Shown one piece after another: positions 6,919-12,664 of a DNA stretch of 64,000 bases. Under the pieces are notes generated by a model. That model did not search any database. It was not told where the DNA came from and saw only the letters and a list, made by a program, of their open reading frames with translations. The stretch is from positions 336,344-400,343 of the forward strand of contig CAWESA010000013.1 in NCBI GenBank assembly GCA_963811605.1. Direction: 5' to 3'. Position 1 is the stretch's first letter. Every line of letters starts with the position of its first letter. The translations under genes and the position numbers were made by a program. Source of the stretch: an uncultured delta proteobacterium. Its GTDB lineage: Bacteria; Desulfobacterota; Binatia; DP-6.

Positions 6919-8200
6919 CGTCGCCGGTGAGGGGGACCTCCATGCGGCGCAGCTCGAGCTGCTCGTCGCCGGTTCGGTAGTCGGGCAATCCGACCACGCG
7001 GAGCTGGAAGCCGTACCGACCGGCCTGCAGCTTCTCGCCATGCCGGCCGCGGATGCCGACCAGCGGCACGCTGCCGGGTACGACCTCCGGAGGAGCGCGC
7101 AGGGTGGCGTCGTCCTCGTAGACCAGCGAGAGCGGGATCGCCTTGCGCAGATTCTGACTCATGGTCATCGCGACCAGGATGGCCTGCCGGTCACCGACCA
7201 GCGTGAACCAGTTGCCGCTGCCCGCGAACGCGCGCTCGCGGGCGTCCATGTGGCCGTCGATGGCGAATCCGGGCGGCTCCGCGCCCGGGGCGACGTAGTG
7301 CCAGCCCTCGAGTCCCTGCATGTCCACGCCGCCCATGGCGGTGATGTCGCTGAAGAAGACCGACGGCGAGAAGGGCAGCTTCATCGCCCCCGGTCCGTAG
7401 ACGTGCTCGCCATAGAAATACGTGTGCGCGAGGCCCGCGGTGAGGCGGATGCCGAGCCCGATGTCCACCTTGTGGCGCGACCGGCGCACCACCCGCACCG
7501 GGCCGGCCGTCCACGCGACCAGCTCGTGCTGCCCGTCGCGCTCGCTGATGGACCAGTGCGCCAGGCCGGTGTGCAGGGTCGCTTCGGCCCGCAGTCGCAG
7601 CCCGTCGATCATGTTCGGGCCCATGGGGCCGTCGAGGCCGACGGCAAAGTCGACCGGCAGCGCTCCCGCCATGCCGACCCGGTAGCGCGCCGCGTGCACC
7701 CGATCCTGCGCGGCGTCGTACTCGACGTAGCGCCGGTCCGTGTGCGGCGGGTGGTCGGACGTCACCAGGTAGGCCCACCCGACGGAGTGGTCGAGGGGGT
7801 CGTCGATGCGGATCTCGCGGCCGCTGGCCGCCGGCGGCGCGCCGTCCGGCGCCCGCGAGCCGGCGTCGCACGCCATGAACACGAGCAGGTCGTCGGGATC
7901 GAGGACTCCGGGACGATCGTCCCGGGTCGGCTCCTTGCCGCCCGCCATCGCGATCCCGCCCGGCCCCTGCACCCGCTCGTCCACCTGGAAGGGAATCGGA
8001 TGGGCCACGCCGTCGCGGTAGGCCACCATCCCGAGGCGGGCGAGCGGCGTTCCTCCCAGGCGGCGCAGGCGGAGCGCGGTCAGCTCGATGGCCTCGTGGC
8101 GGCGCGCGATCGGGCCACAGGGTCCGATCGGCGACGGCGCGCTCTCGGGCCGGGCGGCGGCGGCCCAGAGCACGCACGCCATCGCCAGCGCGGCGCGCAT
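6872..8200 (-). CDS. Secreted hypothetical protein
   Basis: Signal peptide MRAALAMACVLWAAAA; PIPFQVDE, DPDDLLVFM motifs; ATG overlaps the upstream TGA. Confidence 0.75.
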   Translation of the reverse strand: MRAALAMACVLWAAAARPESAPSPIGPCGPIARRHEAIELTALRLRRLGGTPLARLGMVAYRDGVAHPIPFQVDERVQGPGGIAMAGGKEPTRDDRPGVLDPDDLLVFMACDAGSRAPDGAPPAASGREIRIDDPLDHSVGWAYLVTSDHPPHTDRRYVEYDAAQDRVHAARYRVGMAGALPVDFAVGLDGPMGPNMIDGLRLRAEATLHTGLAHWSISERDGQHELVAWTAGPVRVVRRSRHKVDIGLGIRLTAGLAHTYFYGEHVYGPGAMKLPFSPSVFFSDITAMGGVDMQGLEGWHYVAPGAEPPGFAIDGHMDARERAFAGSGNWFTLVGDRQAILVAMTMSQNLRKAIPLSLVYEDDATLRAPPEVVPGSVPLVGIRGRHGEKLQAGRYGFQLRVVGLPDYRTGDEQLELRRMEVPLTGDVTMPADLEVAPAPAR

Positions 8201-9411
8201 CAGCCCGCGAGCACGGCGGTGAGCGTCGGGGCGCGCAGCATCCGGCGCCATGCCCGCTCGACGTCCGCGAGCGCGAGCGTATCGAGCACGCGCGCCGCCT
8301 CGGCGAGCGAGGGCTGCCTACCGACGGCACGCACGGCGTGCGCCAGGGCACGATCGAGACGAGAGTCGGCGAGGCGGGCGAAGCGGTAGCGGATCTTCTT
8401 GCGCGCCCGGGAGAGCTCCTCGGCCGTGAAGCCCGATGCCGCTTCGAGGCACGTCCGCTCGACCGTCTCGCGGAGACGGCGCTCGTGCTCCCGGGCGGCG
8501 CTGGCCGAGATCACCGCGACCGCCCAGTCGACGCCGTACTCCACCGACGCGCCCACGTCGTAGCCCAGGCCGAGTCGCTCGCGCACCTCCTGGAAGAGCC
8601 GGGCATCGGGATCCGCGCCGACGATCTCGAGCGCGAGCGAGAGCGCCAGGACGTTGCGCGGGTCCGACGGGGCGGCCGCGATGCGCACGAGGTAGGCCTG
8701 CGCGAGGTCCTGGCGACGCAGGTGCATGGGTCGCCTCGACGCGCGGCGTGGCAGCCGCGGCCAGGGCGTGGGCCGTGGGCCCACGCGCGGAAACGCCCGC
8801 GCGAGCGCGCGACGGACGCGGACCGGCGACACGCCCCCCACCAGCGCGACCGCCATGTTGGCGGGCACGAACTGGCGCGCCACGAAACCCCGGACGGCCT
8901 CGGGCGTGATGCGGCGCACGCTCGTGACGGTGCCGCAGATGGGATGGCCGAGGGGTCCGCCGAAGAAGCGGCCCCAGGCCTGCTCGTGCACCGCGTTGGC
9001 GGGATCCTCCTGGCGACCCCTGATCTCGTCGATCACGACCCGGCGCTCCTTGGCGAAGCGATCCGACGGCACCATCGAGTGGAACAGCTGATCGGCCAGC
9101 AGGCCGAGCGCCTCCTCGACGTCCTCGTCGAAGACCTCGAAGTGGAGCGTCATGTCCTCGTAGCCGGTGTCGGCGTCGTGCTCGCCCCCCAGCTCGCCGG
9201 CCCGCCGGTTGAGCGCGGCCTGATCGAAGCGCGGGGTGCCCTGGAAGAGCATGTGCTCCGCCATGTGCGCGATGCCCTGGCGCTCGCCGTCGAAGCGCGC
9301 TCCCGCCCGCACGGCGATCGCGATGGCGGTCAACGGTCCCGGCGCCGGCTCGAAGAGCACCGTCAGCGAGCCGTGCGGGATGCGGCTCGGCTCGCGCAGC
9401 AGGCCGCTCAG
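8200..9411 (-). CDS. M16 (pitrilysin) family zinc peptidase; start uncertain
   Basis: GIAHMAEHMLFQGT (HxxEH), ERRVVIDEI, RLFQEVRERLGLGY. Confidence 0.88.
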   Translation of the reverse strand: MSGLLREPSRIPHGSLTVLFEPAPGPLTAIAIAVRAGARFDGERQGIAHMAEHMLFQGTPRFDQAALNRRAGELGGEHDADTGYEDMTLHFEVFDEDVEEALGLLADQLFHSMVPSDRFAKERRVVIDEIRGRQEDPANAVHEQAWGRFFGGPLGHPICGTVTSVRRITPEAVRGFVARQFVPANMAVALVGGVSPVRVRRALARAFPRVGPRPTPWPRLPRRASRRPMHLRRQDLAQAYLVRIAAAPSDPRNVLALSLALEIVGADPDARLFQEVRERLGLGYDVGASVEYGVDWAVAVISASAAREHERRLRETVERTCLEAASGFTAEELSRARKKIRYRFARLADSRLDRALAHAVRAVGRQPSLAEAARVLDTLALADVERAWRRMLRAPTLTAVLAG

Positions 9412-9466
9412 GCTGCCGTCGGCGCCGGCGCGTGGCGGCCCGGCGCGGAGCCCCGCCCGGGGCTTC

Positions 9467-10970
9467 TCACCAGCCGTAGAGCACCGCCATGACGCGCTCG
9501 ATCTGGCGCGCGCGCTTGATCGAGTACGGGAACCAGGTCGGCTCCGTCGCGCGGCGGCGGCCTTCGACGAGGATGGCCTGCCGGACGCAGAACTGGCGCA
9601 GGCCCTCGGCGCCGCCGTGCCGCGTGCCGACGCCGCTCTGCTTGACGCCACCGAAGGGCAGGCCGGGGATGCCGGCCGACACGAGACACTCGTTGACGCA
9701 GGCGTTGCCGCTCTCGATGCGCCGTGCGATCGCGATGCCGCGCTCGACGTCACGCGTCCAGACGCTGGCATTGAGGCCGTACTGGCTGTCGTTGGCGAGT
9801 CGCACCGCTTCGTCGACGTCGTGTACCGCCATCACCGGGACGACCGGTCCGAACGTCTCCTCCCGCATGACGAGCATCGAGTGGTCGACGCCCGCCGAGG
9901 ACGGTCGGCTCGTAGAAGTGTCCCGGGCCCCCGCCGTGACGGCGGCCGCCGCACAGGACGCTCGCGCCGCGTGCCCGCGCGTCCTCGACGTGCCGCTCCA
10001 CGATCTCGATCTGCCGCGGGCTGGTGAAGGCGCCGTAGTCGATCTCGGCGTCGGGCCCGTTCGCCCCGACCCGCAGGGCGCGCATCTGCTCCACCAGCTT
10101 GCGGGTGAACGCCTCGGCGACCGGCGCCTCGACGTAGACGCGCTCGACCGACATGCACACCTGGCCGGTCATCATGCAGCCGCCCCATGCGGCCGCCCGC
10201 GCCGCGCGCTCGAGGTCGGCGTCCGCGAGGACGATCATCGGATCCTTGCCGCCCAGCTCGAGCAGGACAGGCGTGAGGCGGCGACTGGCGCGCTCCATGA
10301 CACGGCGGCCGGTCTCCGGCGATCCGGTCACGCAGATCATGTCGACCTGGTCGACGAGCGCCGCGCCGGTCTCGCCCGCTCCGTGCACCACCTGGAGCAC
10401 GTCGGCCGGCAGCGCACGCTGCATGGCCGCCACGGCGCGCTGCACGCCCAGCGGCGCCAGCTCGGAGGGCTTGATCACCACGGCGTTACCGGCGAGCAGC
10501 GCGGGGATGGCATCCCCGAGCGCGAGGTTGAGGGGAGCATTCCAGGGGCTGATGATGCCGATCACGCCGCGCGGGCGGTACGCCACCAGGGCTCGCTTCC
10601 CGAGCAGGGGGCGTGCGCTCACGCGCTCGCCGGCGAGCCAGCGCGGCGCCCGGCGCGCGAGGTGGCCCAGATCGAGGCAGACGCCCATCAGCTCGCCCAC
10701 CACGTCGAAGCGGGTCTTGCCCGTCTCGCGCTCCAGACGCTCCAGGATCTCCGCGCGGGCGCGTACCAGCTCGCGGCGGGCGCGACGCAGGGCGCGACCG
10801 CGGGCCCGCGCCGGCAGCGCACCCCATGCGGCCTGAGCCGCACGGCCCCGCGCAACGGCGTCGGCCACCGCGCCCGCGTCGGCCACCGGTAGCTCGGCGA
10901 CCACCCCGCCGCGGGCCGGGTCGTGCACCGCCAGCGTCGTGCTCCGCTCGATCGTCAGCCCTTGCGCCAT
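9467..10970 (-). pseudogene. Aldehyde dehydrogenase, +1 frameshift near 9895 (probably assembly error)
   Basis: ISPWN, TGSPETG, LELGGKDP, GQVC in one frame; VDHSMLVMREETFGP..PFGGVKQSG in the next. Confidence 0.88.
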
Positions 10971-10986: not shown

Positions 10987-11412
10987 TCAGAACTGCATCC
11001 GGTACAGCATGTAGTAGACCATCCACCCGCTGGCGGCCACGTAGAGCCAGATGGGCAGGGTGATGCGCGCCAGGCGTCGATGCGCCGCGAAGTCCCGCTT
11101 CACGAGCGCGAGCTGGATCAGGCGGACCGCCAGCGGCCCCACGAGGATGGCGAGGATGACGTGCGGGATCAGATTCGTGAAGTACACCGTGCGCCACACG
11201 CCCGTGCCACCGAACGGCTTCGACCCGTACACGGCCCAGCGAGTGACGTAGACGACGAGGAACCCGCCGGCCAGCGCGGTCGCCAGGAGCATCACGTTGC
11301 GATGCCAGGCGACGCTACGCGGCACGCGGATCAGGTACCACCCGACCAGGAGACACGCGCCGCTGGCGACGATGCAGGTGGTGCTGAGGCGCGTCAGGGC
11401 CTCGAGGGTCAT
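10987..11412 (-). CDS. DUF420 family membrane protein
   Basis: Four TM segments; HRNVM, FLVVY, HVILA, HRRLARITLPIWLYVAASGWMVY. Confidence 0.88.
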   Translation of the reverse strand: MTLEALTRLSTTCIVASGACLLVGWYLIRVPRSVAWHRNVMLLATALAGGFLVVYVTRWAVYGSKPFGGTGVWRTVYFTNLIPHVILAILVGPLAVRLIQLALVKRDFAAHRRLARITLPIWLYVAASGWMVYYMLYRMQF

Positions 11413-11438
11413 CCGGCTGCTTCTTCCACGCGCGGCGC

Positions 11439-11512
11439 AAAAAAAGAACCCCGATGGCCTTCTGCGGCTCGCAGAGCCGCCCCGCCGGTGATTGCGGGGG
11501 CCATCGGGGTTC
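11439..11512 (-). terminator. Rho-independent terminator with branched loop
   Basis: 14-bp perfect stem 11446-11459/11499-11512 followed by U7 (A-tract 11439-11445); two internal hairpins. Confidence 0.85.
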
Positions 11513-11567
11513 GGTGGTGCCTGGGTCCCCTCAAGGGTGACCCAGCGACGTTGCAAGCTGGTCGACC

Positions 11568-11612
11568 CTAAGAGGCCACCACCTCACAGATCACCGTAGG
11601 GGATAACGTCAC
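11568..11612 (-). CDS. Putative 14-aa peptide MTLSPTVICEVVAS
   Basis: GTG directly after AGAAAGGAGGTGATCCA; TAG stop. Confidence 0.5.
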   Translation of the reverse strand: MTLSPTVICEVVAS

Positions 11613-11763
11613 TGGATCACCTCCTTTCTTCCGGCGGTAGCACAAGGCGAGCCCAAACCCCGCCGCCGGAGATCGACCGCCGTTGCCGACCCCCAGCCCC
11701 GACCACCGGCGCATGCCGGCTGTGAAGGCCTGTGTGAGCCCCGGTCGGGAACCCATGCCCGCT

Positions 11764-11792
11764 AGCGTAGCGTCCGAAACGGGGTCTGTAAA
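11764..11792 (-). promoter_or_regulatory. Sigma70-like promoter
   Basis: TTTACA-17 nt-TACGCT on the minus strand. Confidence 0.65.
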
Positions 11793-11806
11793 TGTGTATC
11801 CGCGGG

Positions 11807-12664
11807 TCAGCGGCGGCGGGCGGTCACGAGCCAGGTCGCGGAGGACATGCGGACGCCGTCCGGCGTGTGGTACGGCGCAAGTGCATCGCGCACCGCGGCA
11901 GCGACCGTCTCGCGCTGCGCCGGCGTGGCCTCCCGCATGGCCGCGGCGGCGGGTCCCATCTGCATCATGAAGCCGACTGCCTGATCGAGCGATCCCCTGC
12001 CGCCGACGGTGAGCGTCGCGCGGTGGTCGGCGCATGCGACGTCGGCGAACCCCGCGCGCTCCAGGATCGAGCGCACGCGGTCGGCGTCCGCGAATGCGAA
12101 CGGCCCGGGCGCGTCGGGGCTGGCGGGCAGCGGCAGCGTGACGTGCTGCGCGGCTGCCATCACCGGAACCGCCATCCACGGGTTCTCCGGGAGAGCCCGC
12201 CAGCAGGCGAAGGCGAGCCGTCCCCCGGCGCGGATGGCGCCGTGCAGATTGGTGAAGGCGGCCACCGGATCGGCGAAGAACATCACGCCGAAGCGCGAGA
12301 AGGCGGCGTCGAGGCTTGCCGGCTCGAAGCCGTGCGTCTGGGCATCGGCGCCGACGAAGGTGACGTTGTCCGCGCCCGCCGCACGGGCGCGCTCGCGGGC
12401 GCGTCCCAGCATGGGCGCGGAGATGTCGACGCCCGTGACGCGTCCTCCCGGCCCGACCCGCCGCCCGAGCTCGAGGCTCGTCCGTCCCGTCCCGCATCCG
12501 ACGTCGAGCACGCGCTCGCCGGCCGCGAGCGCGAGCCGATCCATCGCCGCTTCACCGATCGCATGGATCTGCCCGTCGAGCACCTCGTCGAGCGCGACCC
12601 ACTTCGGACCGGCGGTGTCGTTCCAGTAGGTGATCTGCTCCGCGTTCGGACCGGTGGCGTTCAT
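11807..12664 (-). CDS. Class I SAM-dependent methyltransferase
   Basis: VLDVGCGTG, GVDISAPML, SRFGVMFF. Confidence 0.92.
   Translation of the reverse strand: MNATGPNAEQITYWNDTAGPKWVALDEVLDGQIHAIGEAAMDRLALAAGERVLDVGCGTGRTSLELGRRVGPGGRVTGVDISAPMLGRARERARAAGADNVTFVGADAQTHGFEPASLDAAFSRFGVMFFADPVAAFTNLHGAIRAGGRLAFACWRALPENPWMAVPVMAAAQHVTLPLPASPDAPGPFAFADADRVRSILERAGFADVACADHRATLTVGGRGSLDQAVGFMMQMGPAAAAMREATPAQRETVAAAVRDALAPYHTPDGVRMSSATWLVTARRR

Follow-up and report, generated by a model that had tools for sequence, protein, structure and literature searches.

What is the function of an intergenic RNA that can pair, letter for letter, with the last 18 nucleotides (nt) of its own 16S rRNA? The question is raised by a 64,000-nt stretch of contig CAWESA010000013.1 from an uncultured delta proteobacterium (the window, to which all coordinates refer; those of individual parts were computed from its sequence). 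On the minus strand, between genes that Pfam assigns to an S-adenosylmethionine (SAM) methyltransferase (11807-12664) and a DUF420 protein (10987-11412), lies an element with a predicted transcript of ~319 nt (11757-11439, both ends putative). At its centre are an extended Shine-Dalgarno (SD) segment, AGAAAGGAGGTGATCCAG (11629-11612), which complements the 16S 3' end perfectly over 18 nt, and a micro-open reading frame (micro-ORF; 11612-11568) consisting of GTG, 13 further codons and TAG; the final G of AGAAAGGAGGTGATCCAG is the first letter of the GTG start. The codons (GTG ACG TTA TCC CCT ACG GTG ATC TGT GAG GTG GTG GCC TCT TAG) translate as M-TLSPTVICEVVAS, giving the peptide MTLSPTVICEVVAS. 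We favour, with somewhat better than even confidence, the interpretation that the element is a small mRNA of the rre type (for 'ribosome-regulated expression'): a ribosome-capturing, translation-gated RNA, homologous to the Rfam family Ms_IGR-5, built like rreB and CC2171, and encoded as an independent single-copy unit. Model and pattern searches find it once in the 5.85-Mb genome.

Pairing with the 16S 3' end and the fold of the RNA

The genome's own 16S gene, the single one detected, ends in ...ctggatcacctcctttct, followed by aaagga; the 18-mer is therefore an exact complement of the organism's own 16S end (18/18). The original prediction had described this match as far longer than a normal SD, and the genome bears it out: GGAGG-anchored exact 16S complements reach 25 nt in the rRNA gene and 18 nt in the element, with 13 nt (one site) the next longest, followed by 12 nt (four sites) and 11 nt (16 sites). 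The final letter of ...CCUUUCU is where complementarity ends, and we take it to be the mature 16S 3' terminus, as is established for other bacteria. A search of the window for the 18-mer with up to three mismatches gives one occurrence against 0.02 expected (100 shuffles), and the predicted duplex of the 18-mer with the 16S tail has an energy of -32.6 kcal/mol, versus -8.7 kcal/mol for plain GGAGG. Several of the 21 shorter complements (11-13 nt) in this genome (G000) resemble, by eye, in-frame ...GAG GTG ATC... coding sequence, not ribosome-binding sites (RBSs).

A second complement, UCCCCUACGG (11603-11594, minus strand), is colinear with the first: it complements ccgtagggga, which in helix 45 forms the 5' strand and the loop, and begins 8 nt past the 18-mer, a spacing equal to that within 16S. 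By eye, letters like CUACGG are found again, similarly spaced, in carriers from Rokuibacteriota, Methylomirabilota and Binatia, not in Actinomycetota. Alternatively, UCCCCUACGG may serve a local hairpin with GUGAGG (consensus helix 10).

The minus-strand RNA is strongly structured: 322 nt (11439-11760) fold at -184.7 kcal/mol (z = -6.16 relative to shuffles). The homolog collection and covariation analysis that the original prediction had proposed, here an RNAalifold consensus of a 27-sequence homolog alignment (A1), describes a conserved unit. In that consensus 94.7% of cells are paired, as compared with 34-54% in slid controls, and the count of pairs with both sides changed is 38, where shuffles give 17.2 +/- 2.7 and none of 500 reaches 38. 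The covariation is concentrated in a GC-rich 5' domain (11749-11646) and in the terminator stem. In helices 1-5 of the 5' domain the pairs with two-sided changes number 3, 3, 3, 9 and 3, with 89-98% of cells paired; the five helices form a three-way junction, P1 (11749-11743 with 11704-11698), that encloses hairpins 11742-11725 and 11720-11705, and two further hairpins (11697-11665 and 11664-11646). The proposed stem 11698-11704/11743-11749 is thus recovered as helix 1, with 3/7 pairs changed on both sides. A second stem of the original prediction, 11630-11637/11663-11670, is complementary in the window's own sequence but was rejected: its 5' strand changes in three homologs (L009, L011 and L012) without a change in the partner, and its letters belong to two covarying hairpins (helices 4 and 5), the changes being matched inside hairpin P2. 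At the 3' end stands a branched intrinsic terminator with a 14-bp outer stem (11512-11446), inner hairpins at 11499-11480 (loop AAUCACC) and 11480-11464, and a U7 tract (11445-11439). The 14-bp stem and U7 had been noted before; the stem (helix 14) now proves to be compensatory in 8/14 pairs, with 98.1% of cells paired. A simple terminator scan makes no call here because the loop is long.

The first hairpin of the 5' domain carries the loop ACACAGG (11735-11729). An [A/U]CAC[A/G]G element at this position, -108 to -128 from the SD, is found in 32/33 sequences of the window's class and in several other phyla. It also lies upstream in 58/93 listed actinobacterial sequences, nearest at -8 in 52 of those 58; a reverse-complement control gives 8/153. 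The ORF has, at its Ile/Cys codons, a complement of the loop element (CUGUG), and a loop-to-ORF contact may be possible.

How accessible is the RBS? In the predicted ensemble the first four letters of the 18-mer have unpaired probabilities of 0.76-0.96, and from GGUG onward the values are near 0, the A inside GGAGG excepted. In the minimum free energy (MFE) structure, GGUGAUCCAGUGACG (11621-11607) pairs over 15 bp with a downstream strand that itself resembles the 16S 3' end, CGUCGCUGGGUCACC (11550-11536); this helix is worth -27.2 kcal/mol, and 96.5% of its cells are paired in the 27 homologs, with almost no variation. The consensus fold differs from the MFE in that the SD is paired with GGCACCACC (11521-11513; helices 8/9), just 5' of the terminator. 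Both partners fit at least 96% of cells, and the variation is too small to choose between them. Keeping the RBS open is calculated to cost 15.1 kcal/mol and releases the CGUCGCUGGGUCACC strand, which is then predicted to form a hairpin at 11545-11521. No helix that competes with the terminator was found in the consensus or RBS-open folds.

Transcription, distribution and the conserved reading frame

Several signs are compatible with a stand-alone unit, the transcript ends being putative: promoter-like and terminator sequences, similarity among relatives that begins at the predicted start, and RNA-library contigs that fall inside it. The promoter-like site, TTTACA (11792-11787), a 17-nt spacer and TACGCT (11769-11764), had been read from the sequence by the original prediction. 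The hexamers are there, and a -35-like hexamer and a TA...T -10-like hexamer are retained by eye in the homolog alignment, although a consensus promoter scan called no site at them. Cross-genus similarity begins at query position 34-42 (window ~11759-11751), just downstream of the proposed -10 hexamer.

Between 20 and 40% of sampled words of 11400-11800 are contained in 22 public runs (14 studies), 15 of which are recorded as RNA, mostly small soil or rhizosphere metatranscriptomes. Contigs from four RNA libraries, one per library and from four studies, lie wholly within 11527-11747 with 1-4 differences: 11546-11745 (200 nt, 2 differences), 11527-11687 (161 nt, 1 difference), 11561-11732 (170 nt) and 11576-11747 (172 nt). 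None of the four extends into the flanking genes; the parts of the predicted transcript outside their cover are 11439-11526 and 11748-11757. One contig joins the 5' domain, the SD and the ORF, and the long leader therefore belongs to the same molecule.

A DNA search of 41 genomes (the window's and 40 relatives) found the element in 32, including 23/24 of the same coded family; identity within this family is ~78-95%, and across genera ~80% over the predicted transcript. A scan of the class with AAGGAGGTGRTCCAGTG matched 71/401 sampled genomes, one copy each save for one genome with two (70/400 without G185, a genome flagged as unpublished), and a reversed-pattern control gave 0 matches. By coded family the matches range from 21/24 down to 0/94; such zeros do not establish absence, because exact AAGGAGGTGRTCCAGTG misses variants with other starts. 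A scan of species genomes with AAGGAGGTGRTCC-N20-30-TGTGAGGTGG yielded at least 120 loci in ~10 phyla. Among the matches listed, and using the phylum labels carried by the sequence records, 93 are from Actinomycetota, 8 Binatota, 5 Acidobacteriota, 3 Rokuibacteriota, 2 Methylomirabilota, 2 Nitrospirota, 3 labelled 'Deltaproteobacteria'/Myxococcota, 1 Thermodesulfobacteriota, 1 Gemmatimonadota, 1 unlabelled and 1 a gammaproteobacterial metagenome-assembled genome (MAG). The bin of this last MAG may be wrong, because its sequence is of the actinobacterial type. The closest named relatives of the window's version among the matches listed are 'Candidatus Binatia' MAGs. Viral contigs gave 0 matches to the SD-ORF pattern.

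These 120 pattern matches, together with the class sequences, make up a set of 150 distinct sequences. The three letters 5' of AAGGAGG, which no search pattern fixes, are purine-G-purine in nearly all of them, the middle letter being G in 146/150. Pairing with the U-C-U at the end of 16S calls for just this motif, G.U allowed; pairing to the very 3' end therefore appears to be selected, on the assumption that the 16S of other carriers ends like that of the window's genome.

Another key observation concerns the geometry of the micro-ORF. The 14-codon GTG...TAG frame proposed in the original prediction is retained across phyla in both its start and its stop. All 120 listed loci have an in-frame start 7-13 nt past GGAGG (TTG 72, ATG 22, GTG 20, CTG 5, ATT 1; the start-calling script also accepted CTG and ATT), and the peptides have 12 (89 loci), 13 (14), 14 (16) or 15 (1) residues. 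In 150/150 sequences a stop stands exactly six codons after the UGU of UGU-GAG-GUG (TAG 131, TGA 14, TAA 5); the other two frames have a stop at the same offset in none of the 150. Start position, start codon and stop codon vary with the frame kept, a sign that it is important for translation to begin and end at fixed places.

Within the class, the ORF retains its length and a C-terminal V-I-C-E-V-V/A-A-S/P; its N-terminal residues otherwise vary freely. The segment UGUGAGGUGG (11588-11579) is unchanged in 27/27 aligned sequences. Where the search pattern leaves the codons free, in 33 class sequences, they are UGU in 32 (AGU in one), GAG in 33 and GUG in 33; bearing in mind that UGU makes up 13% of Cys codons in 1,536 long ORFs of this genome with high third-position G+C (GC3), and 2/26 in five neighbouring genes, the codon kept is a rare one.

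The 3' half of the ORF is also constrained as RNA. The strand GGUGGUGGCC (11583-11574), which we call ORF-b and which includes codons 4-5 after C-E-V, covaries with the ..CCACC element 5' of the terminator, in the window GGCACCACC (98.4% of cells paired). At least 8 contiguous pairs form in 81% of the 150 sequences, compared to 52% with swapped partners. A compensatory pair, GGTGGCTAC:GTAGCCACC, occurs in 5/5, and further matched variants are GGTGGCTGC:GCAG(T/C)CACC, GGTGGTGAC:GTCACCACC, GGTGGTGCC:GGCACCACC and GGTGGCCGC:GCGGCCACC. By eye, the start in Actinomycetota is enclosed by pairing of the SD tail to codons 5-7 (UCCGG/CCGGA, UCCUGA/UCAGGA, UCCGA/UCGGA).

Three strands of the GGUG type occur in the RNA (the SD, ORF-a and ORF-b), as do three of the CACC type (11536-11541, 11513-11519 and the terminator's inner loop AAUCACC). 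ORF-a, CGGUGAU (11598-11592), can form at least 7 pairs with the terminator loop AUCACCG in 27% of 56 sequences (14% with swapped partners), and variants among relatives include GAC:GUC, GAUC:GAUC and GAUU:AAUC; with such weak statistics, a contact between ORF-a and the inner hairpin at 11499-11480 is suggestive only.

Known relatives, mechanism and competing explanations

The original prediction could not assign the RNA to a known class. At gathering scores Rfam indeed gives 0 matches in the 64 kb, riboswitch, tmRNA, 6S, RNase P and SRP models included, and the 5' domain alone returns nothing credible at E<=10. On the other hand, Ms_IGR-5 (RF02471) aligns over its full length (model 1-184) at 39.1 bits, under its cut-off of 45 (E 2.8e-7), and the rre architecture has already been published. 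In a genome-wide search the Ms_IGR-5 model finds this locus alone (E 4.8e-7; next match E 0.21), and among 14 named control genomes it gives below-cut-off matches in Caulobacter vibrioides and Thermus thermophilus. When 20 of the listed loci were submitted to cmscan, 4/4 actinobacterial ones were true Ms_IGR-5 members (54-176 bits); seven of the non-actinobacterial loci scored 33-41 bits and nine gave nothing at E<=1e-3. A second family, CC2171 (RF01867), matches on the same strand at 30.4 bits, against a cut-off of 75, and has 0 matches in 121 genomes of the window's class at E<=1e-5.

The likeness to Ms_IGR-5 extends to an extended SD, a micro-ORF with UGUGAGGUGG (UGU-GAG-GUG) and a stop six codons on, all in the same order; in both, a strand of the ORF pairs with a ..CACC element before the terminator. 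The actinobacterial RNAs differ in having ORFs of 12-13 codons, mostly with a TTG start 10-12 nt past GGAGG, in an SD that contains a G.U pair (GGUGGUCC), and in lacking the long 5' domain. According to the accessible text of the respective reports, Ms_IGR-5 homologs in M. abscessus and M. smegmatis have significant ribosome-protected reads by ribosome profiling (Ribo-seq; PMC4974804), and the RNA has been detected in M. smegmatis (PMC10454040) and in the transcriptomes of Streptomyces lividans and S. avermitilis (PMC8079986, PMC8780764). No paper that describes Ms_IGR-5 as an extended-SD mRNA was found in the literature searched, with most subscription journals outside it.

The rre architecture was published in 2016, in alpha-proteobacteria only. 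Its model member is rreB of Bradyrhizobium japonicum (Hahn et al., RNA Biol 2017;14:1353, PMC5711450), for which we draw throughout on the portions of that paper available to us. This small mRNA of 165 nt has a promoter and terminator of its own, complements the 16S 3' end perfectly over 17 nt, the initial G of GTG among them, and carries a small ORF (sORF) of 14 amino acids; of the complement, only the five letters on its 5' side are predicted to be single-stranded. Full-length rreB co-sediments with 30S subunits and is weakly translated, and replacing its start with a stop codon stabilises the RNA. Its overexpression has no effect on growth, and its function was termed 'elusive' (PMC5711450).

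The window's element resembles these genes in several respects: the complement is 16-17 nt in rreB/rreR and 18 nt here, each including the GTG start's initial base; the sORF has 14-18 codons in rre genes and 14 in both rreB and the element; and complement and start lie in a conserved hairpin that leaves only ~5 letters, on the complement's 5' side, single-stranded, here by prediction. The genomic context of rreB/rreR, too, is kept only among close relatives. In contrast, rreB is 165 nt long with a leader of a few letters, whereas the window RNA has ~319 nt and a covarying 5' domain of 125 nt. The rre hosts are alpha-proteobacteria and the window's host is not, and 30S binding, weak translation and start-codon-dependent decay are data for rreB (PMC5711450). 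RreB begins M-S-Y-L-K-R (Table S2 primers, PMC5711450), unlike the window peptide.

CC2171, a Caulobacter small RNA (sRNA) also annotated in Methylorubrum and Mesorhizobium, with a Northern signal reported in M. extorquens, has an identical GAAAGGAGGUGAUCCAGUG at its 5' end; its ORF after GUG is unlike that of the window. The rreB cloning primers (Table S2, PMC5711450) begin like the CC2171 consensus over ~30 letters. Because of this match, CC2171 is probably the alpha-proteobacterial rre family under an Rfam name; the words Actinobacteria, Mycobacterium, Rfam and CC2171 do not occur in the text of PMC5711450 available to us. A BLAST search of plasmids with the SD and ORF, aimed at the plasmid-borne Azospirillum rre gene named in the accessible text of that paper, gave no match. 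In the literature searched, the micro-ORF peptide strings occur in 0 papers and the SD letters match only 16S primers.

The observation that the original prediction singled out is thus real and its functional guesses were close; the element is a member of a known, obscure kind, that of rre-type small mRNAs and Ms_IGR-5. By its own rule that a described family removes novelty, the relation to Ms_IGR-5 and the rre genes of 2016 much reduces that novelty. What seems to be new is the link between Ms_IGR-5 and rre, the spread over ~10 phyla, the fixed geometry of the micro-ORF, the covariation of this ORF with the 3' domain and this lineage's extra 5' domain: none of these points was found in print in the literature searched, which lacked most subscription journals.

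We hypothesize the following cycle. In the free RNA, 13-14 of the 18 RBS letters and the GUG would be locked, in the modelled structure, with the downstream 16S-3'-end-like segment, leaving the first 4-5 letters (AGAA/A) open. These letters may act as a toehold for invasion by a 30S subunit through its 16S 3' tail, a picture of ribosome binding proposed by the rreB authors and experimental for rreB only (PMC5711450). The 16S duplex being far stronger than that of a normal SD, the RNA would therefore be held on the subunit. The 14-codon ORF would be translated inefficiently, with selection, to judge from the conservation, maintaining initiation, ribosome passage and a fixed site of termination, and not the peptide. 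To pass, the ribosome would have to unzip the helix between the 3' half of the ORF and the CCACC element beside the terminator, so that the 3' domain refolds; refolding could make what becomes of the RNA depend on its engagement by a ribosome. Removal of the start codon stabilised rreB. Up to 30S capture this scheme draws on the rreB experiments and on prediction; the translation-gated refolding and any cellular output are our inference. Another analog is trpL/rnTrpL of Sinorhizobium, where, in the accessible description, translation of a tiny ORF remodels helices before an intrinsic terminator and the released RNA is an sRNA. The window's element differs in that a conserved downstream operon, a run of regulatory codons and an anti-terminator helix were not found.

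Several points weigh against this interpretation. The scores lie under the Rfam curated cut-offs for both Ms_IGR-5 and CC2171. The SD-sequestering helix, being almost invariant, is without covariation support, and its two candidate partners fit equally well. The invariance of the SD core and of UGUGAGGUGG is circular in 120 of the 150 sequences, because the search pattern fixed those letters (13 of the 18 SD letters as well as UGUGAGGUGG). The RNA-library contigs give no strand, ends or level, DNA carry-over is possible, and the transcript ends are putative. RreB and RreR are unlike each other and unlike the window's peptide; because of these differences the likeness to the alpha-proteobacterial genes may be analogy and not homology. 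Moreover, rreB itself is weakly translated and has no overexpression phenotype (PMC5711450). Finally, the conservation of C-terminal C-E-V-A/V across phyla could equally mean a functional peptide.

This last point leads to the alternative that the 14-residue peptide is the effector, and the RNA a stable, tightly controlled messenger for a C-E-V-(A/V)-x-x micropeptide that acts on a conserved cell component. We regard this as unlikely, while taking seriously that the start, the frame and the stop six codons after Cys are kept in 150/150, that by eye C-E-V is followed by A or V alone when a fixed G would also permit G, D and E, that two loci (L028 and L141) have an in-frame 3-nt insertion, and that mycobacterial homologs carry ribosome footprints (PMC4974804). 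These features must be set against an N-terminal half that is free in sequence and in length (12-15 residues), synonymous positions that are frozen with the rare UGU in use, codons 4-5 after C-E-V that covary with a downstream RNA strand and, by eye, actinobacterial codons 5-7 that pair with the SD tail. Furthermore, synthetic RreB and RreR peptides are unstructured and their overproduction has no phenotype, as far as the accessible text reports (PMC5711450), and no partner genes are retained nearby. Since the letters of the ORF are constrained as RNA and its N-terminal residues are free, we rank ribosome passage above the peptide as the point of translation. The suggestion in the original prediction of a small-peptide mRNA or 30S-binding RNA is supported in either case by the kept start and stop, the mycobacterial ribosome-protected reads and, by analogy, the presence of rreB on 30S.

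Its other suggestion, a decoy, fares less well. An untranslated sponge that sequesters the 16S 3' tail, for instance in silencing or protecting idle subunits, with an incidental ORF, could draw on the 18/18 complementarity at -32.6 kcal/mol, on the presence of weakly translated rreB on 30S (PMC5711450) and on the purine-G-purine opposite the last three 16S letters across phyla. It is improbable nonetheless: start and stop are kept as functions and not as letters (ATG/GTG/TTG; TAG/TGA/TAA), the start codon influences the stability of rreB, and ribosomes, as the rreB authors point out, far outnumber rreB RNA, whose overexpression did not slow growth (PMC5711450). It is simple titration that this last result weakens.

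A bolder notion, which we would count as very improbable, is that Ms_IGR-5, the rre genes and the window's element are one ancient cross-phylum checkpoint, a 'test-drive' RNA for 30S subunits and not a messenger. The complement would then end exactly at the mature 16S 3' terminus, with purine-G-purine opposite U-C-U kept in ~10 phyla, so that only a correctly trimmed subunit invades the lock, translates the 14 codons and releases or destroys the RNA, which might thereby signal or control how many competent 30S subunits are available. In the window's lineage the UCCCCUACGG complement (11603-11594) could additionally cover the 5' strand and loop of helix 45; this loop, in E. coli numbering, presumably holds the first of two adenines that are dimethylated late in assembly.

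A cis-acting leader or attenuator of the DUF420 gene, with the micro-ORF as leader peptide, is suggested by the shared strand, by a distance of 26 nt past the U-tract and by an attenuator-like layout of leader ORF, alternative helices and terminator. Across 33 loci, however, DUF420 is downstream in only 9, the methyltransferase is a neighbour in 9, and the window's three neighbouring proteins flank the element in only 10; in 22 other loci the 44 flanking ORFs, which were chosen greedily and many of which are probably spurious in GC-rich DNA, belong to unrelated Pfam families or none, often on the opposite strand. The neighbours differ among loci, and such a leader role is therefore highly unlikely; besides, the RNA is a discrete sRNA in Actinomycetota and Bradyrhizobium, according to the accessible reports, and a terminator-competing helix was not found in the folds examined. 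To the idea that the plus strand is an rRNA-operon-end relic or chance match, bearing the final ~36 nt of 16S in degenerate form, we give almost no credence: the colinear antisense segments (18 nt, an 8-nt gap, then the 10 nt of UCCCCUACGG) speak for it, but the match is no longer than those segments, a promoter, ORF and terminator lie on the opposite strand in 23/24 family genomes, the SD-ORF core recurs in ~10 phyla, and the chance expectation is 0.02.

If the links of the favoured rre-type reading hold, the same device is present in Mycobacterium, Streptomyces, Acidobacteriota, Nitrospirota, Binatia and others, and few known micro-ORFs would be kept as widely as its ORF of 12-15 codons. What rre-type RNAs do, a question since 2016, would become addressable in tractable species (M. 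smegmatis, Streptomyces), with the toehold, the start, the position of the stop and the ORF-b:CCACC helix as concrete sites for mutation. There is also a caution for annotation: an RNA that Rfam files as a non-coding 'sRNA' seems to be a translated messenger whose RBS is the strongest natural one of its genome.

Flanking genes and other local observations

Synteny was considered as a functional clue and rejected, given that neighbours differ among loci. In a Kitasatospora locus (L116:479-552) a tRNA gene lies ~130 nt from the element, and rreB adjoins a tRNA-Gly gene, as stated in the accessible text of PMC5711450; this is possibly a coincidence. In one actinobacterial sequence (L170) a ~40-nt tandem repeat (GTCGAGTGGCCCCGAA.GCAGCCCCCC...) follows the element by eye, replacing the usual terminator region.

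The upstream methyltransferase gene (11807-12664, minus strand) has a sub-threshold match to NpmA, a 16S rRNA A1408 methyltransferase, at 19.2 bits against a cut-off of 60, which probably reflects a generic SAM fold. Further along the same strand, an aldehyde-dehydrogenase ORF (9750-10970) covers positions 6-357 of a 461-position Pfam profile and continues into an Arg-rich tail. Its end is overlapped by 22 nt by an ORF at 8200-9771, in which peptidase M16 domains begin only from residue 144; the region around ~9800-9900 looks like a frameshift or an assembly error.

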